In this document: piece by piece, positions 1,234 to 29,418 of the stretch
Position numbering within the stretch: the stretch's first letter is position 1
Layout: each line of letters opens with the position of its first letter
Source: a virus
Taxonomy: Duplodnaviria > Heunggongvirae > Uroviricota > Caudoviricetes
Strand: one strand, 5' to 3'
IMG/VR virus record: IMGVR_UViG_2909288124_000006
DNA: 34,666 nucleotides
Position numbers and translations under genes: made by a program
The notes under the pieces: generated by a model
Database searches by the model: none
The model's input: the letters and a program-made list of their open reading frames with translations, nothing else
Told to the model about the DNA's origin: nothing

Positions 1234-2334
1234 TCACTCTGTTTCCGCTATCCATTCCGGGATTTTTGCCTCAAGCTCAAGCTGCGTGGTAAAGCCGCTG
1301 TTATCAATGGTGTGCTCGGCTTTTGCAATGATCCAGTCCTGATTATCAATCTCGCTTTTAAATCCTGTTACCGTACCATGCATTTCGGGGTAGAGTTCTG
1401 CACGTCCACGCGCCAGCGTGATGGAGAATGATGCGGCTCCGCGTTGTAGTTGCTGCCACTTTGCCGCCGCTGCGCGTCTTGCTGCCTGTTCGTTCTGATA
1501 GGTCTTGCGTAACACAAACACATTGCCTTCCGCGCCTTCCATATAATCACCTTCACGGCTGCTGCTTTTCTCTTTTTTCGGTTTGCGGCGTTTCACGCTG
1601 ACTTTTTTCTTTTTCCCGTAATTAAGATCAAGCCAGTAAGCGCGTACCCCCGTATACGCTTCGCGGTCAGCAATGCGGAACTGATGGCGATCGCCGCTGC
1701 TGCGTGTAATGGCGAACGAGGGCAACGGCTGGCCCTGTGCGTTCACGCCACCACCTGGCATGATGAATAACAGATTGCCGCTTTTTACCGTGGTGATTGC
1801 GCCCAGCATTTCCGCCATGCGCGTAAGGAAGGACATGTCGCTTTCTTCGGTCTGGTCGGCGTGGTCGATTTCGATATCCATCAGCATTTCGCTGATTTGC
1901 GGTTTCAGACCATACCGATGAGCGATGGCGGATACCACACGCTCAACGGTCACATCATGCCAGGACACCTCGCGTTTAACGTTAAATTCATCCCGAAAAT
2001 CTGCGCTTCTGGCTGAAACAGTCAGCCTGTCCGGCGGTCCTTCGTGAGCGATTTCATCAACAATGTAAGTGCCTTTTTCTGTCAGCGGTTCCCCTTTCCA
2101 GCCAATGAGAACCGTCAGACGCGCGCCCCGTGGCGGTAGCTGCAACTGGCCATCGGCATCATCCAGCGTGATGGTGAGCTGGTCCGCCTCAAATCCCCGG
2201 TTGTCGGTCAGTGACAGGCTCATCAGGCGTTCTGCCACGCCGGACAGCGTTTTACCCTCGGCGAGAATATCAAAATCCGGCATTTTCACGGGGTCTGTGC
2301 CCTGACTGAGCAATTGCATGGTGGTGTCGGTCAT
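1234..2334 (-). CDS. D: Tail protein D (late control gene D family)
   Basis: Phage_GPD-like sequence; start set at internal ATG 2334 (MTDTTMQLL) with SD GGGAGGGAAG; the ORF-track N-terminal extension to 2466 was not used. Confidence 0.85.
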   Translation of the reverse strand: MTDTTMQLLSQGTDPVKMPDFDILAEGKTLSGVAERLMSLSLTDNRGFEADQLTITLDDADGQLQLPPRGARLTVLIGWKGEPLTEKGTYIVDEIAHEGPPDRLTVSARSADFRDEFNVKREVSWHDVTVERVVSAIAHRYGLKPQISEMLMDIEIDHADQTEESDMSFLTRMAEMLGAITTVKSGNLLFIMPGGGVNAQGQPLPSFAITRSSGDRHQFRIADREAYTGVRAYWLDLNYGKKKKVSVKRRKPKKEKSSSREGDYMEGAEGNVFVLRKTYQNEQAARRAAAAKWQQLQRGAASFSITLARGRAELYPEMHGTVTGFKSEIDNQDWIIAKAEHTIDNSGFTTQLELEAKIPEWIAETE

Positions 2335-2491
2335 CTCTTCCCTCCCTGTGCGGCATGGTCGCATGTGCGTGCGGAGGGGGTTACTGCTTTTTGTTGTCGC
2401 CGTGGCGGGAGAATAGCGCAGGGGTGAGATTACGCGCGTGGTGGGTGATGATTGTTGCTGAATCATTTAACGGATACAAGGGGCTGAAGTT

Positions 2492-3676
2492 ATGAGTGAA
2501 ACTCGTTTTCATGGTGCCCGTGTTACGGAAAATACCGACCTGGTAACAGCGATTAACGATGTTGATTCCAGCGTTATCGGTATCGTGGCAACGGCGGATG
2601 ATGCGGACGCGAAGCTGTTCCCGCTGAACAAGCCCACACTGCTGACCCGCGTCAATGACGTGCTGGGAAAATGCGGGACAACGGGGACGCTTTATCGTGC
2701 GCTTAAGGCCATCGCAGACCAGGTGAGCACAAAGGTGATCGTCGTTCGCGTGGCTGAACACAAAGAAGAAGACGGAAAGACGCAGGATCAACTGGTTATC
2801 GGCGGTTCTGAGGATGACGGCAGCTATACGGGGATGTATGCGCTGCTTGTTGCAGAGCAGGATGAAAGCATCGGATACCGTCCGCGTATTCTGGCAGCGC
2901 CGGAGCTGGACACGGAGGCTGTAACAAAATCCCTGTGCGTGATTGCGGGTAAACTGCGCGCGTTTGTGTATGCCTCATGTCATGGCTGTAACACGATGGC
3001 TGAGGCAATTACCTACCGCCAGAAATTCAACGAACGTGAGGTGATGCTCTTATGGCCGGACTTCATCGCCTACAACCCGAAAAGTGGCAAAAACGAAACG
3101 TTCCCCGCGCCTGCCTATGCGTGCGGCCTTCGTGCGTACATTGACCATGAGCAGGGATGGCACAAATCACTGTCCAACGTTCCGGTTAAAAATGTGCTGG
3201 GGATGTCGAGGCATGTGTTCTGGTCGTTGCAGGCCGAAGACAGCGATGCCAACAGCCTCAACAACAAAGAAATCACGACCATTATTCGTCGCAACGGGTT
3301 CCGCTTCTGGGGCAACCGCACACCGGAAACGAACGCCTACATCTTTGAGGTGTATACCCGAACCGCACAGGTGCTGGCTGATTCAATTGCGGAAGCGCAG
3401 TTTGAAACCATCGACAGTCCACTGACGCCTGCGAACGTGAAGGATGTTATCAGCGCCATCAGGGCAAAACTGGATTCGCTGGTTACTGCCGGGAAACTGA
3501 TTGGCGCGGAGTGCTGGTATGACGTGGTGGATAACGGCACCACGGATTTACGTCAGGGGCGTGTGCGTATTCGCTACAAATATACGCCCGTTCCCCCGCT
3601 GGAAGACATGGAGCTTTACCAGACGTTTACTGATGAATTCTTTGGTCCCGCATTTGCGGTGCTGGGAGGTGCCTGA
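2492..3676 (+). CDS. FI: Contractile tail sheath protein FI
   Basis: 394 aa, strong resemblance to P2 gpFI (e.g. LIRRNGFRFWGNRT, YTPVPPLE). Confidence 0.92.
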   Translation: MSETRFHGARVTENTDLVTAINDVDSSVIGIVATADDADAKLFPLNKPTLLTRVNDVLGKCGTTGTLYRALKAIADQVSTKVIVVRVAEHKEEDGKTQDQLVIGGSEDDGSYTGMYALLVAEQDESIGYRPRILAAPELDTEAVTKSLCVIAGKLRAFVYASCHGCNTMAEAITYRQKFNEREVMLLWPDFIAYNPKSGKNETFPAPAYACGLRAYIDHEQGWHKSLSNVPVKNVLGMSRHVFWSLQAEDSDANSLNNKEITTIIRRNGFRFWGNRTPETNAYIFEVYTRTAQVLADSIAEAQFETIDSPLTPANVKDVISAIRAKLDSLVTAGKLIGAECWYDVVDNGTTDLRQGRVRIRYKYTPVPPLEDMELYQTFTDEFFGPAFAVLGGA

Positions 3677-4188
3677 TGGCTGTACCAAAACATCTTCGCT
3701 TTTTTACGTTGTTTGTGGATGGTGAAAACGAAGTGGGTAAAGTGACATCCGTCACGCCGCCCAAACTGACGCGCAAAACCGACAGTTATCGTGGTGGTGG
3801 CATGATGGGGGCGGTAAGTATTGATCTCGGTCTGGACGACTCCGCGCTTGATGCGAGCTTTGTCATGGGGGGAGCTGTTCGTGCACTGTTCCTTAAGTAT
3901 GGCGGCACGATTGACGGCACGCTGCTGCGTTTTGCGGGTGAATATTACACCGATGCAGAAAGCGATCTGTATGAAATCGAGATGCGCGGGCGTGTGACGG
4001 AAATTGATATGGGGGAGGCCAAACAGGGCGAAGCCACATCACACACATACGCTGTCAAAAACACCTACTACAAGCTGAGTGTTAACGATCGCCCGCTGTG
4101 GGAAATCGACCTGTTGAACCACATCTACCGGAAGGACGGCAAGGACATTGTGCCTGACCGCATTCGCTCCGCGCTTGGGCTTGGCTGA
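3676..4188 (+). CDS. FII: Tail tube protein FII
   Basis: 170 aa, resembles P2 gpFII; start overlaps FI stop. Confidence 0.9.
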   Translation: MAVPKHLRFFTLFVDGENEVGKVTSVTPPKLTRKTDSYRGGGMMGAVSIDLGLDDSALDASFVMGGAVRALFLKYGGTIDGTLLRFAGEYYTDAESDLYEIEMRGRVTEIDMGEAKQGEATSHTYAVKNTYYKLSVNDRPLWEIDLLNHIYRKDGKDIVPDRIRSALGLG

Positions 4189-4243
4189 TAAGTAATATGC
4201 AGGCGACGCAGTGCGTCGCCTCTGACTGAAAAGGAGACAACTG

Positions 4244-4618
4244 ATGAAAGACATCGATACTGAAACCCGGAATAACACCGTAGCGGATGATGTGACGGCA
4301 GGTGAGGATATGGCTGTCGAACGTGGTGTAAAACTTTCCCGGCCAATTGAGCGTGGTGCCGAAAAAATCACATATGTGGAAATCACCGGGGCTATTGAGC
4401 AGGCGGGATCCCTGCGTGGTCTGTCGCTGTCTGATGTGCTGAATCTGAAAGCGGATACCATGTTCACGCTGTTGCCTCGCGTGACCTCGCCACGACTGGA
4501 TGAAGTGATGATTAAAAAAATGTCGTCACGCGATTTTATTCAGTTGTGCGCTGTGGCTGTAAATTTTATGAGCGAGCCAGACTCTGGCGCGAAGAGCGTG
4601 CAGGAGACGGCAGCGTAA
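4244..4618 (+). CDS. E: Tail assembly chaperone E (zero-frame product)
   Basis: Position between tube and tape measure; A7 run at 4514-4520 in frame; the -1 frame is open from 4516 to 4782. Confidence 0.7.
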   Translation: MKDIDTETRNNTVADDVTAGEDMAVERGVKLSRPIERGAEKITYVEITGAIEQAGSLRGLSLSDVLNLKADTMFTLLPRVTSPRLDEVMIKKMSSRDFIQLCAVAVNFMSEPDSGAKSVQETAA

Positions 4619-4782
4619 TCACCCTGGTGTGCTTTGAGCACATCGAAGATCTGGTGGCGGATATTGCCGCCATTTTTAACTGGTCGCCCGCCGAAATCTT
4701 CATGATGACGCCCGGCGAAGTGGTTAGCTGGCGTGAGCGGGCGGCACTTCGCAGCGGGAATGCAGATAATGAAGACTCTTGA
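4244..4782 (+). CDS. E': Tail assembly chaperone E+E' (predicted programmed -1 frameshift product, shift near 4514-4520)
   Basis: Conserved E/E' arrangement upstream of tape measure; -1 frame ORF 4516-4782 overlaps T start; the frameshift itself is an inference. Confidence 0.5.
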
Positions 4783-7576
4783 CATCCGGGTCGCTTTCAG
4801 CGCCGTTGACAGGCTGACCCGGCCTGCCGAAAACGCCCGCCGCCTGATGGGGCAGTTTGGTGACTCCATCCAGCGAACGCAGGGGGCGATCAAAAATCTC
4901 GAGCGTCAGGCGCGTTCATTTGAGCGCGCCCGCGACGCTGTCAGTAAAGCGGATGCGGGTATCGTGAAAGCACGACGCCAGCTTAACGCCCTTAATCAGT
5001 TACAACGCACGGGTACAGTGCTCAGCGAAAAACAACAAAAGCTGATGCAGCAGTTAAGCACCCGGCTTGAACGCCTGAATGAATCGCGCACACGGGAAAT
5101 TCAGAAAATGCGGGAGCTTGGCGGAGAGCTGAAACGCCACGGCATTTCCCTGACAGGCAGCGATAACACCATCCAGCAGGCCATCAGACGCACCGAACAG
5201 TACAACAACCAGCTTGAACGCGAACGGCAGGCGCTTGCGCGTGTAACGCGGGCGCGTGAGCGGTATTCGCGCGCGCAGGAAACAGCGGGAAAACTGAAAA
5301 CAGGTGGTGCGCTGGCAATTGGTGCGGCAGCGGCGGGCGGCTATGCTGCCGGGCGTTTTTTGCAGCCTGCGATCGGGTTCGGGAAAGAGATGTCCCGCGT
5401 TCAGGCACTGACGCGAATCGACAAAAACAGCCCGCAGTTTAAGGCGCTGCGTGAGCAGGCGTTAAAACTTGGCTCTGAAACGCAGTTCACCGCAGGCGAT
5501 GCCGCCAGTGGGCAGGCATTTCTTGCAATGGCTGGCTTCACACCACAGGCCATTCAGGCTGCGCTCCCTGGCGTACTGAGCATGGCAACGGCTGGCGGTA
5601 TGGACCTCGGTGAGACGGCGGATATTGGCTCAAATATTCTGACGCAGTTCGGTCTTTCTGCTGACCAGATGGACCGGGTCGGCGACACACTCACCGCAGC
5701 GTTTACCCGTACCAACACTGACCTTCGCGCACTGGGTGAAACCATGAAATATGCAGGTCCGGTGGCGGGTAAGCTGGGAATATCGCTGGAGCAGGCCGCA
5801 GCGATGGCGGGCGTGCTGGCGAATATGGGTATCAGGGGGAGTGATGCTGGTACGGCAATGCGTGCCAGCCTGGCTCGTCTGGCATCACCGCCAAAGGCGG
5901 CAGCAGAGGCGCTGAAAGAGCTTGGCGTGTCTGTCTCGGATGCCGGGGGCAAAATGCGCCCGATGGAGGATGTGCTGGCTGACCTTTATAAAGCTACCCG
6001 CAAATACGGGGAAGTTGACCGGGTATCGTTCTTTAAGGACATTGCCGGAGAAGAGGCTTTCACATCATTTATGGCCCTCGTTGATGCGGCAGGTGACGGC
6101 TCCTTACCCAAACTGAGAAAAGAACTTGAAGGCGCGCGCGGTGAGGCTGAACGCACGGCAAAGGTTATGGCCAACAACCTTGACGGCGATTTGAAATCAC
6201 TCAGCAGTGCATGGGAAGGGTTGCGCATCCGCATTGCAGATCTGATTGACGGTCCGCTGCGTTCTGTCACGCAGTGGCTCACGCGTGTGGTATCAAAGGT
6301 GACGGCGCTGGCGCAGGCCCATCCCGCACTGACGCGCCAGCTACTGATTGCAGGCGGTGCACTGCTGGCAATGACTGCAACGGTTGGCTCGTTGTCGCTG
6401 GCTATTGGTGTGCTTGCTGGCCCGCTGGCAAAACTGCGTCTTGGTTTTTCCCTCCTGACCGGATCAATGAATGCTGTCAGGGTTCTGCCAGCACTATGGG
6501 GAATGGTGACGGGTTCCGTTTCTTTACTGGGAGGCGCTATCGGGGCGTTGTTCAGTCCGGTTGGTCTTATCGTGGCTGCGCTTGCCGGAGCTGCCGTTCT
6601 TATCTGGAAATACTGGGATCCCATCAGGGCATTTTTTGCCGGGGTGTTCAGCGGGATTATGGAAAGGCTGACCCCGTTGCGCGAAACCTTTGAACGGTTT
6701 GGTCCTGTTTTTGACGCAATCGGAAGCGGGATCAGCCAGGTGTTTAACTGGTTTAAATCGCTGCTGTCACCGATGGAGTCCAGCAAGGAAACGCTGGATA
6801 AATGTACCAGTGCTGGCGAGATATTCGGTAACGTTCTTGGTGGCGCGCTACAGCTTGTTCTGACGCCTGCAAAAATGTTGCTGGATACGCTGGCGTGGAT
6901 ACTTGAAAAACTCGGTGTGCTTCCGGATGAAGCGGAAAGGGCGAGAAAGAAAATCGAAGACGCACAGCGTGCGGCCATTCTTCAGGACAAGGTTGCTCTG
7001 TTTCAGGGAGACATTGCGAAAATCAATCCGCCGAAGTCTGCGGAAAATGGCAATGGCACCGGAGGCGATAAACCCAAAGACAACAAACCGCTCACAGACA
7101 GCAATACCGGCACGCTACGCAGACTCAGCAAAATTGCTGATAACACAGGTAAGCTGGTTGATGAGACAAAAAAACGTATTGGCCCCGGCGATATTGTCTT
7201 TAAGAACCTGCCCCGCGCACTTGCTGTTCGTGGGGAGTGGCAGGAGCGGAAGATTGCGCAGGTCAGTAAGCCTGCCCCCGCAATTAATATCACATCCGTA
7301 GTCCCGGCTCCGCTGCCTCCGGCGCTGGTCCCTGTTGTTGCGGCCAGCTCCCGCCCGGTGGCGGAGGCCATACGATCGCCAGTGGCATCAGTTCCTGCAA
7401 CTTCCCGTAACCGGGAGCCTGCTGTCTCCGGATTTGGTGGTGAAATTCATGTTCATCTGCATAACGTTGTTACGCAGAATCCCCGCGAACTGGCGAAACT
7501 GGTCGGTGAAATGGTCAGGGCAGAAATGGAACGGCGCGCCCGTGCCGGGCGTGGCAGTTTTTACGATAAAGATTGA
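4760..7576 (+). CDS. T: Tail tape measure protein T
   Basis: About 940-aa ORF with coiled-coil N-terminus and Gly/Ala-rich hydrophobic middle typical of tape measure; start uncertain (GTG 4733, ATG 4760 or ATG 4769). Confidence 0.85.
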   Translation: MQIMKTLDIRVAFSAVDRLTRPAENARRLMGQFGDSIQRTQGAIKNLERQARSFERARDAVSKADAGIVKARRQLNALNQLQRTGTVLSEKQQKLMQQLSTRLERLNESRTREIQKMRELGGELKRHGISLTGSDNTIQQAIRRTEQYNNQLERERQALARVTRARERYSRAQETAGKLKTGGALAIGAAAAGGYAAGRFLQPAIGFGKEMSRVQALTRIDKNSPQFKALREQALKLGSETQFTAGDAASGQAFLAMAGFTPQAIQAALPGVLSMATAGGMDLGETADIGSNILTQFGLSADQMDRVGDTLTAAFTRTNTDLRALGETMKYAGPVAGKLGISLEQAAAMAGVLANMGIRGSDAGTAMRASLARLASPPKAAAEALKELGVSVSDAGGKMRPMEDVLADLYKATRKYGEVDRVSFFKDIAGEEAFTSFMALVDAAGDGSLPKLRKELEGARGEAERTAKVMANNLDGDLKSLSSAWEGLRIRIADLIDGPLRSVTQWLTRVVSKVTALAQAHPALTRQLLIAGGALLAMTATVGSLSLAIGVLAGPLAKLRLGFSLLTGSMNAVRVLPALWGMVTGSVSLLGGAIGALFSPVGLIVAALAGAAVLIWKYWDPIRAFFAGVFSGIMERLTPLRETFERFGPVFDAIGSGISQVFNWFKSLLSPMESSKETLDKCTSAGEIFGNVLGGALQLVLTPAKMLLDTLAWILEKLGVLPDEAERARKKIEDAQRAAILQDKVALFQGDIAKINPPKSAENGNGTGGDKPKDNKPLTDSNTGTLRRLSKIADNTGKLVDETKKRIGPGDIVFKNLPRALAVRGEWQERKIAQVSKPAPAINITSVVPAPLPPALVPVVAASSRPVAEAIRSPVASVPATSRNREPAVSGFGGEIHVHLHNVVTQNPRELAKLVGEMVRAEMERRARAGRGSFYDKD

Positions 7577-7582
7577 GGAGTC

Positions 7583-8077
7583 ATGGCCATGATGATGATC
7601 TACGGCATGTTTGTTTTTGAGCTGCGCACGCTGCCGCATCAGCAGTTACAGCAAAACAAAAGCTGGCGGCATGTGAAAAATGAACGCGTTAACCGTTCAG
7701 CAAGCTGGCAGTATATCGGTGCAGGTGATGATCGCATCGTTCTTTCTGGTGTGCTTTATCCTGAAATTACAGGTGGCGAAGTGTCGCTGTCGCTGCTGAC
7801 CACGCAGGCGTATACAGGACGACCCTGGCCTCTGATTGATGGCGTCGGGCAGATTTACGGCATGTATGTCCTGACCGGAACGAATACGACCCGTTCCGAG
7901 TTTGATCGCTACGGTAAGGCGAAAAAGATAGAATTTTCACTGACCCTTGAACGCTGTGATGAGGATTTGCGGGAGCGCCTGCAATCCTCATCGTTCAGTG
8001 ATATGCTGTCCGGCTTCAAAGATAAGGTCACATCATCCCTTAACAGCGCGGCCAGCTCCGTTAAAGGGCTGTTTTGA
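7583..8077 (+). CDS. U: Tail protein U
   Basis: 164 aa resembling P2 gpU; SD GAGGAG upstream. Confidence 0.85.
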   Translation: MAMMMIYGMFVFELRTLPHQQLQQNKSWRHVKNERVNRSASWQYIGAGDDRIVLSGVLYPEITGGEVSLSLLTTQAYTGRPWPLIDGVGQIYGMYVLTGTNTTRSEFDRYGKAKKIEFSLTLERCDEDLRERLQSSSFSDMLSGFKDKVTSSLNSAASSVKGLF

Positions 8078-8103
8078 TTAACGCAAAACCGCTAATGGTC
8101 AGA
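8078..8103. terminator. Hairpin between convergent U and invertase genes (aaaaccgctaat...attagcggtttt), likely bidirectional terminator
   Basis: Perfect 12-bp inverted repeat flanked by A-run and T-run. Confidence 0.5.
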
Positions 8104-8703
8104 TTAGCGGTTTTCATTTTCCTGAGTCTGCCTGGTTGTTTCTTCAGCCTGTATATCGCCTACAGGGTGATAACGATAAATCGTCGATATGCCGATGTCG
8201 TAAATGATCGCCAGTTGTTTCCTGTCATGACCGTTTTTAATCAGCCTCGCTATTTGCTCGTGTTGTTCTTTTGTCAACTTCGGGCGACGTCCGCCAATGC
8301 GTCCTTGTTCGCGTGCTGCTGCCAGCCCGGCCAGTGTACGCTCTACAATTAATTCACGTTCCATTTCGGCTAAAGCCCCCATGACGTGAAAAAAGAAACG
8401 CCCCATGGGTGTTGATGTGTCAATGCTGTCCGTCAGACTACGGAAATTAACACCTTTTTCCCGCAATTCCTCAATAAGCGTGATCAGGTGTTTCATACTT
8501 CTGCCCAGTCTGTCCAGCTTCCAGACAACCAGCGTATCTCCTTCTGATAGCGTTCTGAGCAGTTTTTTCAATCCCGGTCTGGCTGATTTCGTTCCGCTGA
8601 TTTTATCTTCAAAAATCAGTTCACATCCTGCGCAGTTCAGTGCATTGCGTTGTAAATCCGTGTTCTGGTCATTTGTTGACACACGAATATAGCCAATTTG
8701 CAT
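8104..8703 (-). CDS. Serine DNA invertase, Hin/Gin/Cin/Pin family
   Basis: MQIGYIRVSTNDQ...GRFFFHVMGALAEMERELIVERT; start set at ATG 8703 with SD AGAGGA; ORF-track upstream extension rejected. Confidence 0.9.
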   Translation of the reverse strand: MQIGYIRVSTNDQNTDLQRNALNCAGCELIFEDKISGTKSARPGLKKLLRTLSEGDTLVVWKLDRLGRSMKHLITLIEELREKGVNFRSLTDSIDTSTPMGRFFFHVMGALAEMERELIVERTLAGLAAAREQGRIGGRRPKLTKEQHEQIARLIKNGHDRKQLAIIYDIGISTIYRYHPVGDIQAEETTRQTQENENR

Positions 8704-8757
8704 AAAAAACATCCTCTTTGTTTCGTGAAAAATACATAGTTGGTATAGGTAGGGATA

Positions 8758-8789
8758 AAAACGAAAACGTTGGTTTAGGAGAAGCGGCG
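8758..8789. other. gix/hix-like recombination site 1 (core ttggtttaggagaa at 8770-8783)
   Basis: 13/14 inverted match to 10655-10668; resembles Gin/Hin crossover site consensus (from memory). Confidence 0.55.
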
Positions 8790-9128
8790 AAAAGGGATGT
8801 GGGCACAGGAGATAATCAGATACCGGATATGGGAGCATTCGCTTCTGGTTCGGGATGGTTCAGGCTACCAGGTGGATATATTGTTCAGTTTGGCACTTTT
8901 GCAGGAAACACGACCCGCTTTATCAGTGGACACTTCCCTATACCATTCCCTAATCAGCCGATGGTTTCAGTCAGTGTTATGTCTGATGCCGTTCAGTCAG
9001 ACCCGTCGAATCCTGCCCCGCAGGTTTTGTCTGTAAATTTTGAACATATCAGTAATTCAGCGTGGCGTGTGGCAACCAGTGATATCTCACAGCAATACAG
9101 ATTCAGTTATATTTCGATAGGACGGTAG
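8784..9128 (+). other. Promoterless alternative tail-fibre C-terminal cassette (H' variable part), currently in the silent orientation
   Basis: Open frame through gix site encoding ...NVGLGE-AAKRDVG...; H encodes ...YLGLGE-GAPAIG... at the other site; followed by its own tfa gene. Confidence 0.55.
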
Positions 9129-9130
9129 AA

Positions 9131-9571
9131 ATGCAGAAATATATTTTCAGTGCCGATAAAAATGCGTTTTTCCCTGTGGAGCTTAAAATCGCTTATCAGG
9201 AATCCGGCGAATGGCCCGATGATGGAATCGAAATTGACGACACTGTTGCTGCCGAATTTATGAAGGAAGCACCAGAAGGAAAATACAGAGGTGTCATCGA
9301 CGGAATGCCTGCATGGATTGATATTCCACCGCCAACTCATGAGGAACAAATTGCCGCAGCCGAACTGAAAAAGCAGCAATTGATTAATCAGGTCAACGAA
9401 TACATAAACAGTAAGCAATGGCCTGGTAAAGCGGCGATTGGTCGCCTGAAAGGTGAGGAACTGGTGCAATATAATTTGTGGCTGGATTATCTGGACGCAC
9501 TGGAACTGGTCGATACTTCCGGTGCGCCAGATATTGAATGGCCTACGCCTCCGGCAGTTCAGGCCAGATGA
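9131..9571 (+). CDS. Tail fibre assembly protein (alternative, partner of the silent cassette)
   Basis: 146 aa Tfa-like, C-terminal ...IEWPTPPA motif; convergent and overlapping with G. Confidence 0.8.
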   Translation: MQKYIFSADKNAFFPVELKIAYQESGEWPDDGIEIDDTVAAEFMKEAPEGKYRGVIDGMPAWIDIPPPTHEEQIAAAELKKQQLINQVNEYINSKQWPGKAAIGRLKGEELVQYNLWLDYLDALELVDTSGAPDIEWPTPPAVQAR

Positions 9572-10136
9572 CATCCGGTGCGGTGCTGGTATCTGTTGCC
9601 GTCACCGCGTCAATATAATCCAGCACAGCGTTAAGTCGGGTGTTTTCTGGCTGCGTCAGCTTCCGCCCGGCCTGTAATTTCAGTTGAATCAGACTGATGG
9701 AAGCCATTGCAGCATCAATCAGCGACTGGCGCTGTGCTTCTGCCGCTTCTACTGCGGCGCTATGCTGTGCCTCGGTATCCGTCACCCATTTCTCACCATC
9801 CCATTTATCGTATGGCGTTAACGGTGAAAGCGTGACATAACCGTCTTTGATGGCACCGATATAATCCACTGTAACAGCTGCGCCATTTTCAGTTGAGTAA
9901 ACGGTCTCATTGCGATGGTCTTCTTCATGGCTCCATCCCTTACCCGTAAATACAGCCACTTTTCCCGGAATGTTTTCGCTCGGGTCAATACCAGTGGAAC
10001 AGGCGGGCATACTTACGCCAGTATTAATATATTCATCAGACCAGCCGGTATATTCATACGTTACTGCATTATAATAAAAACAACGCATATCGCCCGGCAC
10101 TGTAGCCAGCCCATTTTCATCAAAAACAGGTTTCAT
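9543..10136 (-). CDS. G: Tail fibre assembly protein G (expressed orientation)
   Basis: 197 aa Tfa-like; directly downstream of H. Confidence 0.85.
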   Translation of the reverse strand: MKPVFDENGLATVPGDMRCFYYNAVTYEYTGWSDEYINTGVSMPACSTGIDPSENIPGKVAVFTGKGWSHEEDHRNETVYSTENGAAVTVDYIGAIKDGYVTLSPLTPYDKWDGEKWVTDTEAQHSAAVEAAEAQRQSLIDAAMASISLIQLKLQAGRKLTQPENTRLNAVLDYIDAVTATDTSTAPDVIWPELPEA

Positions 10137-11800
10137 TATTTAGCCCTCACCAGAAAGTTAAATGCAATATTTCGTGGACGGGTTTCTGTACCTACATTTC
10201 CACTAATTTCACCATAACGTTTAACACTACGAGAGCTAAGAGCTCGTAGTGAGGAAGGCACCTTAAGACCGGGTTCGTCCGTTTTAACTATTCCCCCGTC
10301 ACCATATGTAGCCAGTATTCCTGGGTTTACTCCTTCCCGTGCACTTCCTGCGGCAAGCCCGTCCCCCGTCCACAATTCCATATTGTGTGCATGATCCATA
10401 ATTGTGTGTGATTGCCCTGAAAGTAGGGTACGTCCGACATCAATCCCGCGCCCATCATCCCAGATACGAATGAAATCACCGCGTGCGTCAGGTAATGCCA
10501 GCGCCGGAAACACTTTCGCCAGCACAGGGTAATCAGTGGCAGAGAATTTCGCGCCGTTGAACTTCAAAAACACCATACCGGACCAGCTATCGATTACGGT
10601 ATCTGGCATTGCAGCGGACGGCCAGAAGAACGGAACGCCAATAGCTGGAGCTCCTTCTCCCAAACCAAGGTAATCAAGAACTCCCTGAGTGCTGGTTTTA
10701 CCAAGAATGGCACGTCCAACACTTGTCAACGCGGTTAACGCGGCACGATCTGCCCCTGTAAAATATGGGAGTTTATCTGCTGATGTAGCAAGCTCCGCCA
10801 GCGCCGTCAGGGTGGCATCCTTCGGTTGCTTACCCGCAAGCGCGTTAGTCATGGTGGTCGCAAAATTCGGGTCATTGCCCAGCGCCGCAGCCAGTTCGTT
10901 CAGCGTGTTCAGTGCATCAGGTGACGAATCTACAAGTGCGGCAATCGCGGCCATAACGAAAGCTGTGCTTGCGATCTGGGTATTATTAGTCCCCTGTGGC
11001 GCTGTTGGTGTTGTTGGCGTTCCGGTCAGTGCCGGGCTGTTTAATGGTGCTTTCTTGTTCGTTTCATCCATTACCACCTTAACAGCTTTTGGTGTCGCTG
11101 CCAGCGTTTCAGACGTGCTGTTCGTGGCGCTACTGAGCTGAACAATCCCTTTTTGTGTTGTGGTGGCGTTCTGGGCAGTATATTTCCCGTTAGCCAGGTC
11201 ATATGCAGCCTTAACCGCTTTCGGTGTTGCGGCCAGTGTTTCTGATTCACTGTTAATTGCACTGCTTAACTGAGTAAAACCTTTTACGGTCAGCGAGGCG
11301 TCCGGGTGACGTCGTGACTGTTCGTGCTCTGAGATTTTATCATCCACATATTTGCGGGTTGCCAGAACCACAGACGGGTCGATTTTCAGCGTGATGGCTT
11401 CGGTGTTCGTGACAACCAGAATCATGCGGATAGTCTGGGTGCGTCCACTGCCTTCCTGCAACTGCGGTTTGTACGTTTCCGGGCAGTTTGCCACCGCAAT
11501 AAGTACGCCTTCATCATCATAAAGACCAATCTCACGGATCCAGAATCCTCCCTCGTTTTCAGGGATGATTTGTTCCGCAATAATCTGGCTCTGATTGTTA
11601 GGGTCAACACTCAGAAGATTCAGCGGTGCAATGCGTTTCTGGTTAATCAGTTTTGTTTGTGCAGGGTCTGGTGTTGGTAACACACCATTTGCATCACCAA
11701 CGGCCATTTGCGTCAGATTCAGCTTACTGCCGAGCATCGTCGCGTTAGCCAGTCGTGCCGCGCCCTGATTAGTCAGAATGGCGTAGTATTTCACTGTCAT
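10136..11800 (-). CDS. H: Tail fibre protein H
   Basis: 554 aa; conserved N-terminus MTVKYYAILTNQGAARLANA, repeat motifs SETLAATPKAVK; gix-like site inside the gene at 10655-10668. Confidence 0.9.
   Translation of the reverse strand: MTVKYYAILTNQGAARLANATMLGSKLNLTQMAVGDANGVLPTPDPAQTKLINQKRIAPLNLLSVDPNNQSQIIAEQIIPENEGGFWIREIGLYDDEGVLIAVANCPETYKPQLQEGSGRTQTIRMILVVTNTEAITLKIDPSVVLATRKYVDDKISEHEQSRRHPDASLTVKGFTQLSSAINSESETLAATPKAVKAAYDLANGKYTAQNATTTQKGIVQLSSATNSTSETLAATPKAVKVVMDETNKKAPLNSPALTGTPTTPTAPQGTNNTQIASTAFVMAAIAALVDSSPDALNTLNELAAALGNDPNFATTMTNALAGKQPKDATLTALAELATSADKLPYFTGADRAALTALTSVGRAILGKTSTQGVLDYLGLGEGAPAIGVPFFWPSAAMPDTVIDSWSGMVFLKFNGAKFSATDYPVLAKVFPALALPDARGDFIRIWDDGRGIDVGRTLLSGQSHTIMDHAHNMELWTGDGLAAGSAREGVNPGILATYGDGGIVKTDEPGLKVPSSLRALSSRSVKRYGEISGNVGTETRPRNIAFNFLVRAK
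10649..10680. other. gix/hix-like recombination site 2 inside H (core ttctcccaaaccaa at 10655-10668)
   Basis: Inverted copy of site 1 core. Confidence 0.55.
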
Positions 11801-12405
11801 GCGTTTACTCTCAGATTATCAATTAAATGAATGGCCGGGGCAGGGAAATAATCCCCTTCGACAATAATGGACTCCGGGGTGTAGGGATAAACCGTCAGGG
11901 CATCGCCGTGATAGCATCCCGTACCAACGAAAATCTTTCCGTTCACACTCAGGCTGATCGCCAGCCCCGTCAGATGGCGACTTACTGGTTTTGCATCCGC
12001 AATAAGGCGCTCAAGTTCCTGATACATTTCATCGGTGATGCCCTGATCAAGTACTCCGACAACAATGCGAAATGTTCCTGGCTCCTCGTTGAGCTGCCAC
12101 CACTCCTTTACTTCAATCAGGTAGCCGAGAGGCTCCACGGCTCTTCGCAGTGCGCTGATGGTCCCTTTGTGTCGGTGTATCAGCCATGCATCACGAATTA
12201 CCTGTCGCTTTGTCTCTTCCGGCCAGTTGCGATCCCAGCGGTCAACGGAAAACGCCCAGGCGAGATAAGGCAGCAGGTGCACCGGGCAGGTGTCCGGCGA
12301 CCACAGCGTGTTGAGGTCTACCGGGATGTCTGTAATGCGCGTTCCGACAGCTTCGGCATAACGCATGAAATTGCTGGCTGATGGCGGTAACAGTGAATTA
12401 CTCAT
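11797..12405 (-). CDS. I: Baseplate assembly protein I
   Basis: Resembles P2 gpI (LLPYLAWAFSVDRWD...); start at ATG 12405 (MSNSLLPP), ATGAGTAA overlap with J stop. Confidence 0.85.
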   Translation of the reverse strand: MSNSLLPPSASNFMRYAEAVGTRITDIPVDLNTLWSPDTCPVHLLPYLAWAFSVDRWDRNWPEETKRQVIRDAWLIHRHKGTISALRRAVEPLGYLIEVKEWWQLNEEPGTFRIVVGVLDQGITDEMYQELERLIADAKPVSRHLTGLAISLSVNGKIFVGTGCYHGDALTVYPYTPESIIVEGDYFPAPAIHLIDNLRVNA

Positions 12406-13294
12406 TGCGCCCACCTTCGCTGATGGTGAATGACTCACAGCGCGCCGCCTGTATGTCGCTGATGGCCATATTCTGTGTGGGTTCGATTATCTCCACGCGT
12501 TGCACACCGTGCACATGCAGTGCGGCAGCAATGGCGGACAACGCCACGTCCTGACCGATAAGCCCCTGCTCAGCCAGCCACTTCCTGAACGACGATTCCG
12601 CCGCAGCCAGAATAGGTTCGGATTCCGGGCCGGGGTAAAAGTACAGTTTTGCATTCAGCCGCCATGTCACGATGCTGGCGCTCTGTACGGTCAGGCGGTC
12701 GGCCACCGGGCGGGTATCCTCTGCATTCAGAACGGCGCGAACGGTATTAAGCAACGCCTCCGTTGCTGTGCCGTCGCCCTCAGTGGACAGGATGGAAACC
12801 GTCACACTGGCCGGAGACGGGCTGATGGCTCGCGCATCGCGCACCAGACCGCTGGCGCTGCGGGCAAAATACTCGTATGCACCTGACGGGCCAGCAACGC
12901 TCAGGCCGTCATACGCCCGCTGCGCCCGCAGTCTCAGCGAGGTGTCGCTCTCCATCACCGCGTCGGTGGTATCCGTTGCCGGAGTGATAACCAGGCGCTT
13001 TGTGTTCATATTGCCCGCGAGGTTGTCCAGGTTTGTCCCTGAACCGTGGCTTAACATACAGGCGCGTGCGCCCTCGTTAACCCGCTGGCGTAACAGCATT
13101 TCACGAAACGACATGGTTTGAGCGATAACGTTAAGGGGTTCCGATTCCAGCTCCAGCGCGGCGGAAACGGCTTCACGCTGTTCGGCGGGATAGGACGCAA
13201 TCATCATGGCCTTTGTGTCAGCCAGAATTGCCTCAAAGTCAGGCTCCGCGATGATGGCGGGTTCCGGTAACTGTGAAAGGTCAACGGCAGGCAT
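12398..13294 (-). CDS. J: Baseplate protein J
   Basis: 298 aa resembling P2 gpJ. Confidence 0.9.
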   Translation of the reverse strand: MPAVDLSQLPEPAIIAEPDFEAILADTKAMMIASYPAEQREAVSAALELESEPLNVIAQTMSFREMLLRQRVNEGARACMLSHGSGTNLDNLAGNMNTKRLVITPATDTTDAVMESDTSLRLRAQRAYDGLSVAGPSGAYEYFARSASGLVRDARAISPSPASVTVSILSTEGDGTATEALLNTVRAVLNAEDTRPVADRLTVQSASIVTWRLNAKLYFYPGPESEPILAAAESSFRKWLAEQGLIGQDVALSAIAAALHVHGVQRVEIIEPTQNMAISDIQAARCESFTISEGGRNE

Positions 13295-13297
13295 GAT

Positions 13298-13648
13298 TTA
13301 CTCCCTCAGCGTGATGGTTAATTCAACATTCTGCATGGTCTGCATGACAGTGCCCGACAGCGTCACCCCGGCGCGGCCTCCTGCCTTCCAGACAACGTCG
13401 ATAGCGTCCAGGGCAATGCGGGGTTCCCATCGTGTCAGTGCAATCACGGCAGCACTCATGCATTGCAGACGCGTGGTGTTATTCATGGGTTCGTCAATCA
13501 AATCAGGCACAAGGCTGCCATATTCCCGTCGCATAACCCGGCTTGCCAGCGGGGTGATCAGGATGTCCCTGACTGACTGTTTCAGGTGCTCCATATCGTT
13601 CAGGTTTCCCGTTCCGTCCGGGTTCATTCCTGTGTAGCGGGTTGTCAC
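13298..13648 (-). CDS. W: Baseplate protein W (GPW/gp25 family)
   Basis: 116 aa; position and family resemblance. Confidence 0.85.
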   Translation of the reverse strand: MTTRYTGMNPDGTGNLNDMEHLKQSVRDILITPLASRVMRREYGSLVPDLIDEPMNNTTRLQCMSAAVIALTRWEPRIALDAIDVVWKAGGRAGVTLSGTVMQTMQNVELTITLRE

Positions 13649-14226
13649 TGCGGGCCTCCTGTCGAATCGCTGCCACCTTTAACGCCACCGTGTTTATGCG
13701 TATGCACTGTGATGCCGTTTGAGGTGAAATCGCCGCCGCTGTGCGTGATATTGCCGCTCATCTTTCCCCCTTTTGTGACGTCAATCTCGGCTGTTTTCAG
13801 AAGGTTTGTGCATTCCACGACGGGCGTATCCAGTTTCACGCTGACGGATGCCTGCAAAGTGGCCGTTTTCATGCCGCTGGCGCTCAGTGCGCCTGCGTCC
13901 GCGTCGTAGCGGAACACCGCGCCATCCGGCGCGCTGACCACGATTTCTTTCAGGCTTTTGCCGGGGGCCGGACTGGCATCACTCCACAGGCTGCCAATTA
14001 TCATGGCGGTTTCCGGGTTGCCGCCAATGCAGGCAATTACCACCTGTTCGCCGGGTGATGGCGGCAGCCACACATTGAAGGCTCCCGCGCGCGTGGTGTT
14101 CCAGCGCAACCAGCCTGTTTCCAGTTCGCCGCTGCGAACGCGCACGCACCAGGACTTCTCATCAACTTCAGAGATGATCCCGGTGCGGATGATGTTGCTC
14201 AGCAGTCGCATGAGTTCTGCGCTCAC
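13645..14226 (-). CDS. V: Baseplate assembly/spike protein V
   Basis: 193 aa resembling P2 gpV; Gly-rich C-terminus. Confidence 0.85.
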   Translation of the reverse strand: MSAELMRLLSNIIRTGIISEVDEKSWCVRVRSGELETGWLRWNTTRAGAFNVWLPPSPGEQVVIACIGGNPETAMIIGSLWSDASPAPGKSLKEIVVSAPDGAVFRYDADAGALSASGMKTATLQASVSVKLDTPVVECTNLLKTAEIDVTKGGKMSGNITHSGGDFTSNGITVHTHKHGGVKGGSDSTGGPQ

Positions 14227-14867
14227 CGTACAGTCTCCGCAATCCGGCCCAGCACCGTGTTATAAATCAGGCGTTCATCTGCCTGACTGATGCCCAACAG
14301 CTCACGTACCGGGTAATCGGTGAAAATGCCCGGCGCAACCTGATCGCGCTCACCGAACTGATGAACGCGGGCAATACGTGCGGCCACGCCGCTGTAACCC
14401 ACCGTCACACCGGAAGCATCTGCACGGGCTTTCAGGTAGCGGGCGGTGCGCAGTTTTACGAACATGGGGACGCGCTTTGTGCTGTCCTGGTTGATGCGCC
14501 GGGTGCGTATTTCCAGAAAGCGGTCGATGTCATCCCGGTAAAACGTGCGGATGCTGTTTTTATCCTCATCCCACCCGGTGATGGTTCGCCCGTATTTCCC
14601 CGTGTCGTGATGCCAGTTTTTCAGCGTGCGTGCTTCGTTATTCCAGATAAAGCGAATGCGCTCCTGTATCCGGGTTACGCGGCGTCTGCGTGGTGTCCAT
14701 GCGGTCCCGTCCGGCGCTTTCTGTGACCGGATGCGCGCCTGCTGGGCGCGGCGTAAATCCTGTGCCAGCTTTCTGGCGATGTTATTGATGGCCTGCTGAT
14801 TCAGGCTGTCGCGGATGGCCTCAAAGGTTTCATCCACGCGGGTGAATGCCTTATCCATCGCTTTCAT
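14223..14867 (-). CDS. S: Tail completion / virion morphogenesis protein S
   Basis: Synteny and family resemblance; longer than P2 gpS as I recall it. Confidence 0.7.
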   Translation of the reverse strand: MKAMDKAFTRVDETFEAIRDSLNQQAINNIARKLAQDLRRAQQARIRSQKAPDGTAWTPRRRRVTRIQERIRFIWNNEARTLKNWHHDTGKYGRTITGWDEDKNSIRTFYRDDIDRFLEIRTRRINQDSTKRVPMFVKLRTARYLKARADASGVTVGYSGVAARIARVHQFGERDQVAPGIFTDYPVRELLGISQADERLIYNTVLGRIAETVR

Positions 14868-15318
14868 CCCACGTCACATCCTGGAATACATGCGACCAGT
14901 CGCCTTCGGAAGAGGGCAGACGGGGTTTTGGCTCCGGCAGGTGTTCTGCCTGCGGTGTGCCCTGACTGTTGCGCGTAATGCGAACGCGTTCCCGCAGGGG
15001 GAGCGTAAACAGGAGATCGGCGCTGTCATCGTCATTGATAACGGCGGAGAATTTGATGTCCTGATTACGCTCCGGATTGAGCAACAACTGTGGCTGATTT
15101 TCGGATAACCACGCCAGCAGCGGCAGCGTGAGGTCGTCCAGCTCCCCGGCGTAATCCATGACAAACATCACCATCTGATAGCGGTAAACAAACGAGGGCG
15201 TTTCTCCGGTCGTTTCAATGTTGCCGCTCTCCACGAAAATGGTGAATTTTTCCGGATTAGCCTGGCACCATCGGCATGAACGGGTCATGGCTTCACGCAG
15301 GGAATCAGTTTTCAGCAT
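14851..15318 (-). CDS. R: Tail completion protein R
   Basis: 155 aa resembling P2 gpR (MLKTDSLR..., LAWLSENQP). Confidence 0.8.
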   Translation of the reverse strand: MLKTDSLREAMTRSCRWCQANPEKFTIFVESGNIETTGETPSFVYRYQMVMFVMDYAGELDDLTLPLLAWLSENQPQLLLNPERNQDIKFSAVINDDDSADLLFTLPLRERVRITRNSQGTPQAEHLPEPKPRLPSSEGDWSHVFQDVTWDESDG

Positions 15319-24201: not shown

Positions 24202-24513
24202 TTACTCAGGAAATAACGCCCGGATATTCCCAGCCATCTGGCTGGTTATCTTAGCCACTGGTGCAGACTGTGCTTCAAACTTTTTTGAGCTGATTTGTGT
24301 CACAGGTAACATCTCATCATCAGCCCATGCGGCCAGTCGGTAAGCCTCTGCCGGATTCGTCTTCAGAAGTGCCAGCCCGGCCAGAAAAGCCACGCGTTGG
24401 CCGCTTTTGCGGGCTTCTGGTGTAAGGCTGTCCAGCCAGGCGCATGCTTCTCCTTCGTTCTTGACGGCAGCTGGCTTCAGATAGAAACTTATTCTTCTGG
24501 TTGGTGTCGTCAT
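24202..24513 (-). CDS. parR: ParR-like centromere-binding adaptor (type II partition)
   Basis: 103 aa directly downstream of parM; ...VAFLAGLALL... resembles R1 ParR region. Confidence 0.7.
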   Translation of the reverse strand: MTTPTRRISFYLKPAAVKNEGEACAWLDSLTPEARKSGQRVAFLAGLALLKTNPAEAYRLAAWADDEMLPVTQISSKKFEAQSAPVAKITSQMAGNIRALFPE

Positions 24514-24517
24514 TGGT

Positions 24518-25477
24518 TTACTCCTTGTTCATTGCGTACAGCCCATTAACCAGAGCAAATTGTGGCCCCCCGTCCGCGATGAAAGTCGCATTAACTCCGC
24601 AGGCTTCGCGGATAGCGGGTGCCACAATCTCCGCCCCGCCACCGACAACCATCACCCGCCCGTAACCCGAAAAAACCGCCAGCGCGCGGATCACGCGTTG
24701 TTTCAGTGTTTCTTCCTTTTCACGAATAACCGCCATCAGGCTGGCGTAATGCGCGTCATTGTGGATGTGCTGGCGCAGCCAGGCTTCATCATGGCGATGT
24801 TCGATAATGGTATTGGCGATGTGGTGACTGGTGCGCATACCGTTAGTGGCCATCACCGACAGTACGGCATCGGCCATAAGAGAAACGCCTACGTGTGGAT
24901 CGCAAAACAGCTGGCTGATACCTGCCAGTTGCCCCTGAACCTTTGCCACATCCAGCGTGGTTCCGCCCAAATCCACAATCAGCAGGGATTCAAACGGACT
25001 CATGTCAGCCAGAGCCTTAAAGCCAGCCGGAATGGATTCAGGCATAACCCGCACGTTACAGATAGTGAATGCTTCGCCGTTCTGGTACTCCACCGGGCGC
25101 ATAACGTTCGCTTTTTTGCGGTTGATGTTGGCCATGTCCGGCTGTGCGTTTGTGTCGAAATACTCGCTCAGTGGCAGGGTGACAACCACATCCACCTCCT
25201 GTGGCGTGATGCCTGATTTGACCAGTGCGTGATGAATGGCAATGACATTCACATCGCTGTACTGGTATTGCGTGTCGGTCGTCTGGACAAAGCGATCGCT
25301 GACCGGATCAAAACCGTAGCGCACGCCATCAAGCATGTAGTTCGCGGGCTGCGTGCCACTGAACGGCGCAGACCATTCCGACTTGAAACTGTTCGGGCTG
25401 ATGGCGTTGCGGCGTTCGCCGTTCTCAGTCCATGCCAGCTTGATGTTGGTGGAGCCGTCGTCGATACAAATTTTCAT
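24518..25477 (-). CDS. parM: ParM/StbA actin-like segregation ATPase
   Basis: 319 aa; IDDGSTNIKL, YSDVNVIAIHHAL, VMPESIPAG, DLGGTTLD motifs matching plasmid R1 ParM as remembered. Confidence 0.9.
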   Translation of the reverse strand: MKICIDDGSTNIKLAWTENGERRNAISPNSFKSEWSAPFSGTQPANYMLDGVRYGFDPVSDRFVQTTDTQYQYSDVNVIAIHHALVKSGITPQEVDVVVTLPLSEYFDTNAQPDMANINRKKANVMRPVEYQNGEAFTICNVRVMPESIPAGFKALADMSPFESLLIVDLGGTTLDVAKVQGQLAGISQLFCDPHVGVSLMADAVLSVMATNGMRTSHHIANTIIEHRHDEAWLRQHIHNDAHYASLMAVIREKEETLKQRVIRALAVFSGYGRVMVVGGGAEIVAPAIREACGVNATFIADGGPQFALVNGLYAMNKE

Positions 25478-28382: not shown

Positions 28383-28748
28383 TTACTTCGTCATGCCATT
28401 CAGGGTGTCGCGGCAGACGGTAGCCAGCCGCTGAATTTCCAGCACGGTGTCTTCTGTGTCGGCATGGCGATGTGTGATGCGGATGCTGTCGGCAATCACA
28501 TCGACGATTGCAGAGGATGGGCGCTGGTAAATGCCAATAACGGACGGGGTACCACCTTCAATGCGGTAAAGCCTGTAATTCCCCTCGTGGCTGTCAATCA
28601 TGTAGCGGCCATCAATAACAATCTTTCCGTCAGCGAGCTGCGGTACAGGCAGGGATTTCAGATACATGTCATAACGATCACGTACGCGAGCGGCAAGATC
28701 ACGCTCTGTGTTGAGCAGGTATTCAAGAAAGTCGTTGGCGAGAATCAT
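28383..28748 (-). CDS. Hypothetical protein (121 aa) immediately upstream of A
   Basis: ORF with tight spacing to A. Confidence 0.5.
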   Translation of the reverse strand: MILANDFLEYLLNTERDLAARVRDRYDMYLKSLPVPQLADGKIVIDGRYMIDSHEGNYRLYRIEGGTPSVIGIYQRPSSAIVDVIADSIRITHRHADTEDTVLEIQRLATVCRDTLNGMTK

Positions 28749-28820
28749 TGCGGCAATCCTCTTGTTACAGATGTGCGAAGGCCTCCCGCCGCAAGGTGCA
28801 GGAAAGGCCCGGAACAGGAA

Positions 28821-29051
28821 TTAATGGAGTTTGTTTTGCTGCTGGATGAGATCCTGAAGAGACAGGAGGTCTTCCGCCAGATAGCTGAATACAGCGGCGC
28901 AGTAGTCGGCTGAAATAGTGCTGTTGAGTCTGTGCAATGTGTTGGATTGCATGATAAAGGCGATGTGTGCAGCGCGGGTGAGTCTGCGATCGATTTCAGT
29001 CTGGATGTGACGACGCTCCGCGATAGTGCGGTGCTGTTTGCGGTTTGCCAT
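28821..29051 (-). CDS. Hypothetical basic protein (76 aa)
   Basis: ORF with SD AAGAGG; its SD lies inside a repeated motif. Confidence 0.4.
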   Translation of the reverse strand: MANRKQHRTIAERRHIQTEIDRRLTRAAHIAFIMQSNTLHRLNSTISADYCAAVFSYLAEDLLSLQDLIQQQNKLH

Positions 29052-29227
29052 GATATGTGGCCTCTTGTAGTAAGTTGTGAAAACTCACCATCCAGAGCTG
29101 CGAAACTGTGGGTGGCGAGACGTACGAGGTTCGCAGTACCGGCTACAAGAGATCCCGGCCCGACCGAAGTCGGCCCCGTACACCCCGCCATAATTCTGAC
29201 GCGAAAAAAACGTGGCAATACAGTACG

Positions 29228-29355
29228 CACAAAAAAACCGCTGGCGCGGTTGTGCGCTCTTGTAGTCAGCAGGCTGCGAAACCCGGCACCCGTTTTATGA
29301 GGTGCAGCGGAAATGTAACCTGACTGATTGCGGCATGGCAAGCGGTTTTTTTGTG
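29228..29355. repeat. Perfect 15-bp inverted repeat (cacaaaaaaaccgct / agcggtttttttgtg) separated by 98 bp
   Basis: Arms at 29228-29242 and 29341-29355. Confidence 0.6.
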
Positions 29356-29418
29356 AGAACGGCATACTAAAAAATCCTGATACTGCTCCGGCCAGCGGTT
29401 TTCACTGGCCGGGTTTAA

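Follow-up and report, generated by a model that had tools for sequence, protein, structure and literature searches.

Organization of the tail-fibre locus

The window, a stretch of 34,666 nucleotides of Caudoviricetes DNA (IMG/VR record IMGVR_UViG_2909288124_000006), contains at 8104-11800 a tail-fibre gene, two chaperone genes and a DNA invertase gene in the arrangement of a fibre inversion switch (Table 1). The fibre gene H (10136-11800, minus strand, 554 amino acids (aa)) contains one of two inverted crossover sites and is read across it in frame. The gene order is constant fibre part, expressed tip and its tfa gene facing a second tfa gene and a silent tip, and then the invertase gene. The last lies outside the segment bounded by the sites, downstream of the fibre operon and oriented as the operon is, with transcription directed away from the segment.

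An earlier note on this DNA had described a Hin/Gin-type invertase at 8104-8703, inverted 14-bp cores matching at 13/14 positions (8770-8783 and 10655-10668), a GLGE junction shared in frame by H and the silent cassette, and convergent tail-fibre assembly genes at 9131-9571 (plus) and 9543-10136 (minus). All of these were borne out: the invertase by Resolvase, HTH_7 and Gin structure matches, the cores in both coordinates and sequence, and the two assembly genes as Caudo_TAP members.

Table 1. Coordinates of the features of the tail-fibre locus in the window
Feature	Position	Strand	Description
Hairpin, perfect 12-bp stem with A-/T-run flanks	8085..8114		Between gpU (plus) and the invertase gene (minus); from terminator scan and sequence
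DNA invertase gene	8104..8703	minus	199 aa, MQIGYIRVSTNDQ...; Pfam, PDB and PHROG matches
Putative recombinational enhancer	8619..8681		Within the 5' end of the invertase gene; two Fis-consensus 15-mers
Left crossover site, invertase-proximal	8758..8783		Plus strand AAAACGAAAACG-TT-GGTTTAGGAGAA; minus strand TTCTCCTAAACC-AA-CGTTTTCGTTTT
Left site, outer half	8758-8769
Left site, core	8770-8771
Left site, inner half	8772-8783
Silent alternative tip	8784..9128	plus	114 aa and stop; gp53-like; continues the frame of the left-site GLGE codons
Tfa chaperone for the silent gp53-like tip	9131..9571	plus	146 aa; Caudo_TAP 9.3e-34; PHROG 188
Tfa chaperone for the expressed tip	9543..10136	minus	197 aa; Caudo_TAP 1.2e-27; PHROG 105 8e-83
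Expressed H tip	10136..10654	minus	Residues 383-554, 172 aa and stop; collar/T4 gp37-tip-like; HxH motif (DHAHN)
Right crossover site, inside H	10655..10680		TTCTCCCAAACC-AA-GGTAATCAAGAA
Right site, inner half	10655-10666
Right site, core	10667-10668
Right site, outer half	10669-10680
H constant N-terminal part	10655..11800	minus	Residues 1-382; outside the segment save the last four codons (GLGE)

Invertase

The invertase belongs to the Hin/Gin/Cin/Pin subfamily of serine recombinases, with Pfam matches to Resolvase (2.2e-51) and HTH_7 (1.4e-12), a match to PHROG 125 'DNA invertase' (2e-98) and an alignment over 185 residues to the Gin structure 4m6f (E=1.8e-91; 3uj3 also ~1e-91). No specific invertase or fibre model of NCBIfam reached its cutoff. 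Loss of the catalytic serine had been named in the earlier note as evidence that would speak against a switch; in the alignment to Gin the nucleophile Ser9 is kept and the YxRVSTNDQ and DRLGRS motifs are intact. The enzyme is predicted to catalyse inversion between the two sites, with indirect support from the orientations and half-sites of the related loci described below. AAGAGGA stands just before the start codon at 8703, and this start agrees with the starts of Gin, Pin and Cin, so that a longer mechanical open reading frame (ORF) reaching 8838 is not credible.

The protein is 82% identical to e14 PinE and 73% identical to each of Gin and Cin. It is a mosaic, in which the catalytic part (residues 1 to ~125) is Pin-like and the C-terminal DNA-binding domain is of the type found in phage P88. 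In P88 itself this type of DNA-binding domain goes with gix sites of the Mu type, which have a GA core. The combination of a Pin-like catalytic part with a P88-type DNA-binding domain hints that site choice in the family is looser than the named systems imply. The exact protein is widespread, being listed in 881 blocks of the genome collection, and is 100% identical in strain TUM1881.

Crossover sites

The 14-bp cores ttggtttaggagaa (left) and ttctcccaaaccaa (right) are complementary at 13/14 positions, and the inverted repeat grows to 16/18 over 8767-8784 and 10654-10671. The functional sites are the full 26-bp units, of which the 14-bp cores are only part. Each consists of two 12-bp half-sites around a central AA/TT; the core dinucleotide is identical in the two sites, which are in inverted orientation. 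This layout of 12-bp imperfect dyad halves and a 2-bp core is that of hix, gix, cix and pix, and the left inner half-site differs by 1 base from the e14 pix inner half-site. The right site codes on the minus strand for LDYLGLGE, and GLGE is in frame at both cores (...DYLGLGE-GAPAIG in H, ...NVGLGE-AAKRDVG in the silent ORF).

The motif TTCTCCYAAACCAA occurs in exactly 2 copies in the window, in opposite orientation, and had 0 occurrences across 100 dinucleotide-preserving shuffles. A scan of the window for the exact core motif returned only the two known sites, and a window scan with AAACCNNGGTTT, 1 mismatch being allowed, gave no extra sites. A shufflon with further crossover sites was rejected for the window, in which a search for cores with up to 3 mismatches gave the two sites and one 3-mismatch chance match. 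The locus is therefore not of the multiple-inversion (Min/p15B) type: it has two sites in the window, hence two states.

Fibre tips and chaperones

The N-terminal part of H is of the P2 type (Pfam Phage_tail_fib 1.7e-62, Phage_fiber_2 2.8e-41; PHROG 7032 over residues 1-387), and P2-type I, J and W genes precede H. Residue 382 is the end of GLGE. Beyond it, the expressed tip matches the T4 gp37 tip structure (PDB 2xgf, E=1e-4) and, weakly, Pfam Collar (16.9 bits, under the cutoff of 24); its matches to PHROG 2631 and 523 run to the C-terminal end. The silent tip matches Pfam Gp53-like_C (4.3e-09; 37.2 bits, cutoff 24.9) and resembles the C-terminal ends of the fibre or structural proteins of PHROG 2557 and 1396. 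It is without a promoter of its own, and its mechanical ORF begins at a TTG at 8718. The comparison of the two C-terminal domains by hidden Markov models (HMMs), which the earlier note had proposed, placed them in unrelated folds, gp37-tip/collar-like and Gp53-like_C, and their sequences have no detectable similarity (local score 23).

Each alternative C-terminus is followed by a Tfa gene, in keeping with the matched chaperone per tip that had been suggested. The start of the 197-aa Tfa overlaps the stop codon of H (TAATG), and the two convergent Tfa genes overlap by 29 bp at their 3' ends. The two Tfa proteins are similar only across the C-terminal ~80 residues. Among related loci (numbered L001 to L025 here), the gp53-like tip is the expressed one, fused to fibre N-termini, in L001, L002, L014 and L015, and the same Tfa protein as that of 9131-9571 (WP_001174919.1) lies 3' of it in L001, L002, L003, L006 and L014.

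Inversion of 8770-10668 in silico gave an uninterrupted fibre of 496 aa, in which the 172-aa tip is replaced by the 114-aa gp53-like tip; the 554-aa and 496-aa forms have residues 1-382 in common. An interrupted cassette frame was the other finding that the earlier note had held would argue against a switch. Its swap sizes of 'roughly 170' and '115' aa were near-exact, the computed values being 172 and 114. The in-silico flipped fibre is identical at 491/496 positions to WP_315775432.1, which is annotated as an intact protein of strain TUM1880.

Enhancer, promoter and terminator

Two 15-mers at 8667-8681 (gene nucleotides 23-37) and 8619-8633 (nucleotides 71-85) fit a degenerate Fis consensus, KNNYRNNWNNYRNNM, each at 7/7 positions. 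The consensus is reportedly that of Hubner and Arber from 1989. The 15-mers are 48 bp apart between centres, at a distance of ~96 bp from the midpoint of the left site, and the same two gene positions fit the consensus in pinE, gin, cin and the P88 invertase gene. This geometry agrees with that of the Hin enhancer, which is 65 bp long with one Fis site per end, ~100 bp from hix (PMC3798978). A recombinational enhancer in the 5' end of the invertase gene is likely, and no more than likely, as the region also encodes a catalytic motif. At the other end of the gene, the hairpin of Table 1 includes the invertase stop codon and is likely a bidirectional terminator for both convergent transcription units.

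Orientation of the segment in related genomes

The earlier note had asked for reads supporting both orientations; public E. coli genomes give comparative evidence in their place. The prophages of strains 503829 (L007) and B7A (L008) are the same, with flanks that are 99.95% identical and colinear and with exactly the inter-site segment inverted. Position 7 of the inner half-site carries a C/T difference that moved with the segment, and the outer half-sites stayed put; exchange therefore took place at or beside the central AA. DETEC-S589 (L005) is flipped relative to the window, with an invertase 99.5% identical, flanks 98.5-98.8% identical and a left site 1 base from that of the window. Strains 12A (L003) and JB2 (L014) likewise have opposite orientations. 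A census of junctions covering 5,426 complete E. coli genomes found 3 genomes with the full-length native H/collar junction and 7 E. coli chromosomes with the predicted flipped H/gp53-like junction, also at full length (98.5-99.8% identity).

Loci L018-L025 (~1300-4450 in locus coordinates) have the same backbone as the window and an invertase 100% identical to its own, together with 5 crossover sites, one 203-aa Tfa and 4-5 short Collar cassettes. Cassette order and orientation vary between these genomes, as in a multi-state version of the two-state switch.

Both outer half-sites of the window are retained unchanged in the 5-site loci, where the one inner half-site reading TTCTCCT occurs in combination with four different outer halves. 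As read from these junctions, the reassorted half-sites are the footprint of repeated core exchange by this very enzyme.

In the RefSeq entries for L005, L008 and L014, H is broken into 2-3 annotated fragments or called a pseudogene, and the silent tip has a gene entry of its own. Frameshifts or assembly errors in the repeat region may account for part of this; the entries show that automated annotation does not recognise the switch. The closest invertase homologue in the phage database (95%) is in the P1-like Punavirus vB_EcoM-673R5 (L013, 1900-5600), where it is split into coding sequences named 'Hin1' and 'Hin2' and where several copies of a conserved collar-tip motif lie on both strands. 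This suggests a multi-cassette locus whose invertase gene is frameshifted or mis-assembled.

Interpretation and alternative explanations

The locus has the anatomy, the intact frames and the invertase family of a fibre switch, and both orientations occur in near-identical elements. It is very probably a functional invertase-driven switch of the Pin/Gin type between two fibre tips of a P88-like prophage. We infer that this exact copy flips, and that the two tips use different receptors, with a change of host range; the tip switch probably changes which bacteria the phage attaches to.

In the proposed mechanism the invertase would bind the two inverted 26-bp sites, assisted by host Fis bound at the enhancer in the 5' part of the invertase gene, a dependence on Fis being presumed. 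Both sites would be cut at the central AA/TT, and the half-sites rotated by 180 degrees and religated. The ~1.9 kb of 8770-10668 would flip, while codons 1-382 of H and the promoter of the late operon would keep their place. In the present orientation H would be made with its 172-aa gp37-tip/collar-like end, followed by the 197-aa Tfa; in the flipped orientation it would be made with the 114-aa gp53-like end, followed by the 146-aa Tfa. A lysogen population would release two kinds of virion with different receptor-binding tips, as host-range bet-hedging. It is unlikely that the flip does more than diversify virions, whether through an adsorption-blocking fibre or Tfa in the lysogen or through an invertase acting in trans on other Pin-type segments. 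If the invertase does act in trans, the states of several prophages in one genome would be coupled.

Several observations weigh against a working switch in this copy. The left outer half-site CGTTTTCGTTTT fits the symmetric half-site poorly and makes a poor partner in the dyad; a promoter scan gave no sigma-70-like promoter upstream of the invertase gene; and no assembly was found with the exact copy in the other orientation. The exact 554-aa H was absent from records elsewhere in an exact-protein look-up, and the Fis 15-mers overlap strongly conserved coding for the catalytic motif, so that conservation alone is no proof of enhancer function. The half-site, the promoter scan and the single orientation of the exact copy are what would be expected of a frozen switch, whose parts look intact but which no longer flips, through a degenerate left outer half-site or an unexpressed invertase, and whose silent cassette is a fossil. 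Such freezing is very unlikely, given that the same invertase and the same outer half-sites occur in relatives with clearly reassorted half-sites, that L005, a close match to the window in invertase and left site, is flipped, and that neither the cassette ORFs nor the Tfa genes contain an interruption.

The orientation differences among relatives could also have come about without the invertase, by horizontal cassette replacement or by RecA-dependent recombination between short repeats. The segment is clearly mobile, being 99.9% identical in the unrelated backbones of L001 and L002, and other cassettes stand on the same H constant part in hundreds of genomes. However, the repeats are just 14-18 bp, which is too short for efficient homologous recombination. 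L007 and L008 are otherwise 99.95% identical, with breakpoints inside the 26-bp sites and the inner-half marker exchanged, and half-site reassortment across 5 sites bears the mark of exchange at the central dinucleotide. Flipping has moreover been measured within clonal cultures, for e14, a Mu prophage and two P2-like enteropathogenic E. coli (EPEC) prophages (two-state, four-state), the last being lysogens of the P2-like kind; in e14 and the EPEC prophages it was continuous (PMC4272514). An origin other than by the invertase is barely credible.

A switch that mainly serves the lysogen, the fibre or Tfa product of one orientation blocking adsorption by other phages, would be compatible with a role in host range. 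The sites and architecture are e14-like, and inversion of the e14 P segment, driven by PinQ, is reported to yield a StfE2 that blocks T2 adsorption (PMC12529663); with a median of 2 places for Pin-type segments per E. coli genome having any, cross-talk is plausible. The fibre gene nonetheless belongs to a late operon that is complete, in a P88-like phage that appears intact, and because that operon is intact a lysogen role would be secondary. P88 is inducible and infectious (PMC5285337), the cassettes are just ~41% identical to e14 StfE, and PADLOC returned no defence model matching the invertase or the accessory ORFs. A function mainly in the lysogen is accordingly quite unlikely, and a switch between two virion tips is preferred.

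Module mobility and prophage backbone

The segment of window positions 8762-10671 is 99.9% identical to L001 4001-5908, in a different P2-type prophage beside csg (csgC), and to L002 4001-5907, in a Mu/e14-like element that carries pinE. Tip and chaperone therefore travel horizontally together, as one module whose limits are the crossover sites. E. coli genomes in the hundreds are 100% identical to the constant part of H as far as 10653/10654, the edge of the site, and no further, and hundreds of genomes carry other cassettes on this constant part; the crossover site is therefore also a natural splice point for horizontal exchange of tip plus chaperone. In P2-like phages, invertases with inversion of adjacent genes have been described at this hotspot, as have swaps of fibre and Tfa (bioRxiv 10.1101/2024.10.15.618418).

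The window is an apparently complete P88-like (Xuanwuvirus, Peduoviridae, P2-family) E. coli prophage. Phages 500465-2, 520873, P884B11 and P88 cover 86-91% of window positions 1000-25000 at 94.7-96.4% identity. The gene order is that of P88, with P2-type domains for D, U, I, J, gpA, Cox, Ogr and integrase. A head-less, carotovoricin-like tailocin is ruled out by capsid, terminase, portal, gpA, Cox and integrase genes.

The classical order in P2 is V W J I H G - FI FII E T U D; in the window the FI-FII-E-T-U block (1234-8077, set against 8104-15318) is the other way round and is convergent with the invertase gene, while D and ogr remain on the other strand. The arrangement is genus-wide, P88 being alike. 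Scans for a remnant crossover site at the D/FI junction, as a possible cause of the inversion, found none.

Between the portal gene and gpA, 24202-25477 (minus) codes for a ParM actin-like ATPase (StbA_N 2.6e-81, ParM C-terminal domain 4.6e-68) and a Plasmid_stab_B protein (9.8e-24), a plasmid-type segregation pair inside an integrating P2-type prophage. GenBank labels the P88 homologues of this pair 'recombinase' and 'chromosome partitioning protein'. At 29108-29195 and 29231-29305 (minus) Rfam matches C4 antisense RNA (78.5 bits) and the Hfq-binding small RNA isrK (66.7 bits). Both RNAs lie inside or overlap a 206-aa ORF (28745-29365) that has a weak match to the Ash family, and the region resembles an immunity RNA module of the P1/P7 type, here in a P2-family prophage. 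The early region also encodes, at 29419-30249 (minus), a protein with an SPFH/Band 7 domain (5.7e-31), for which PADLOC gave no match. Beyond ogr, at the window edge (1-469, plus), are two small overlapping ORFs, one with a weak, sub-threshold match to DUF4177 and the other a YidD-like membrane-insertion-factor homologue (3.6e-18). Whether cargo of the prophage or flanking host DNA, either origin is possible for the pair.

Annotation and engineering

Systems of this kind are already known, their mechanism since the 1980s (Mu G, P1 C, e14 P), and the locus has little importance as a discovery; its practical use is in annotation and phage engineering. RefSeq names its products just 'recombinase family protein', 'gp53-like domain-containing protein' and 'phage tail protein', and often lists the silent tip as a gene of its own. 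The GLGE junction at the 26-bp site is the exact point at which natural tips and chaperones are exchanged between unrelated phages, and it offers a ready splice point for retargeting P2-type phages or tailocins.

Comparison with known systems

In carotovoricin Er and xenorhabdicin, which are built on a P2-type tail module, DNA inversion swaps the fibre C-terminus and changes the target range. These tailocins are head-less, whereas the window also has capsid, terminase, portal, replication and integrase genes. PMC4272514 cites references on tailocin fibre inversion. The five-site relatives that have the identical invertase are of the type described for the P2-like prophage of EPEC E2348/69 (PMC4272514); such multiple-inversion ('shufflon-like') fibre loci, among them Min of p15B, are multi-state, whereas the window has two sites, two tips and two chaperones.

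P88 and the other Xuanwuvirus phages (500465-2, P884B11, 520873) have the same backbone as the window and likewise carry an invertase and an invertible fibre module between gpU and H. P88 differs in its Mu-type gix sites, Gin-like catalytic domain, segment of ~3.07 kb and larger, unrelated tips. The C-terminus of the P88 fibre determines host range, and the paper reporting this mentions neither invertase nor inversion (PMC5285337).

Mu G/Gin has the same gene order, Sc, then Sv and U facing U' and S'v, then gin, with the invertase gene downstream and oriented with the fibre operon. Mu Gin and P1 Cin, at the 73% identity given above, have the Fis consensus at the same gene positions. The Mu gix sites, however, are built on a GA core, where the window has AA, and differ from the window's in their inner half (TTCCTGTAAACC); the G segment is ~3 kb long against 1.9 kb; Mu is of a different phage family; and its tips and chaperones have no detectable DNA or protein similarity to those of the window.

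The P segment of e14, with PinE, has the same layout of constant fibre part, tip and tfa facing tfa and tip, and an invertase gene outside the segment, and its convergent tfa genes overlap alike. Its sites are of the same class, with inner half TTCTCCCAAACC and also TTCTCCYAAACC, an AA core and an invertase-side outer half that starts CGTTT. Identity between PinE and the window's invertase is highest in the catalytic domain, although the DNA-binding domain in the window is of the P88 type and not, as in e14, of the Pin type. The e14 element itself is a defective lambdoid remnant in which stfE is a pseudogene, whereas the window is an apparently complete P2-family prophage, and the tips and chaperones of the two are just 41-62% identical (cassettes ~41% against StfE). 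The earlier note had likened the locus to the Mu G and P1 C segments, and every element of that logic is present and intact; nevertheless, the sequence of the sites and the catalytic domain place it nearest to e14 Pin/pix and not to Mu Gin/gix.

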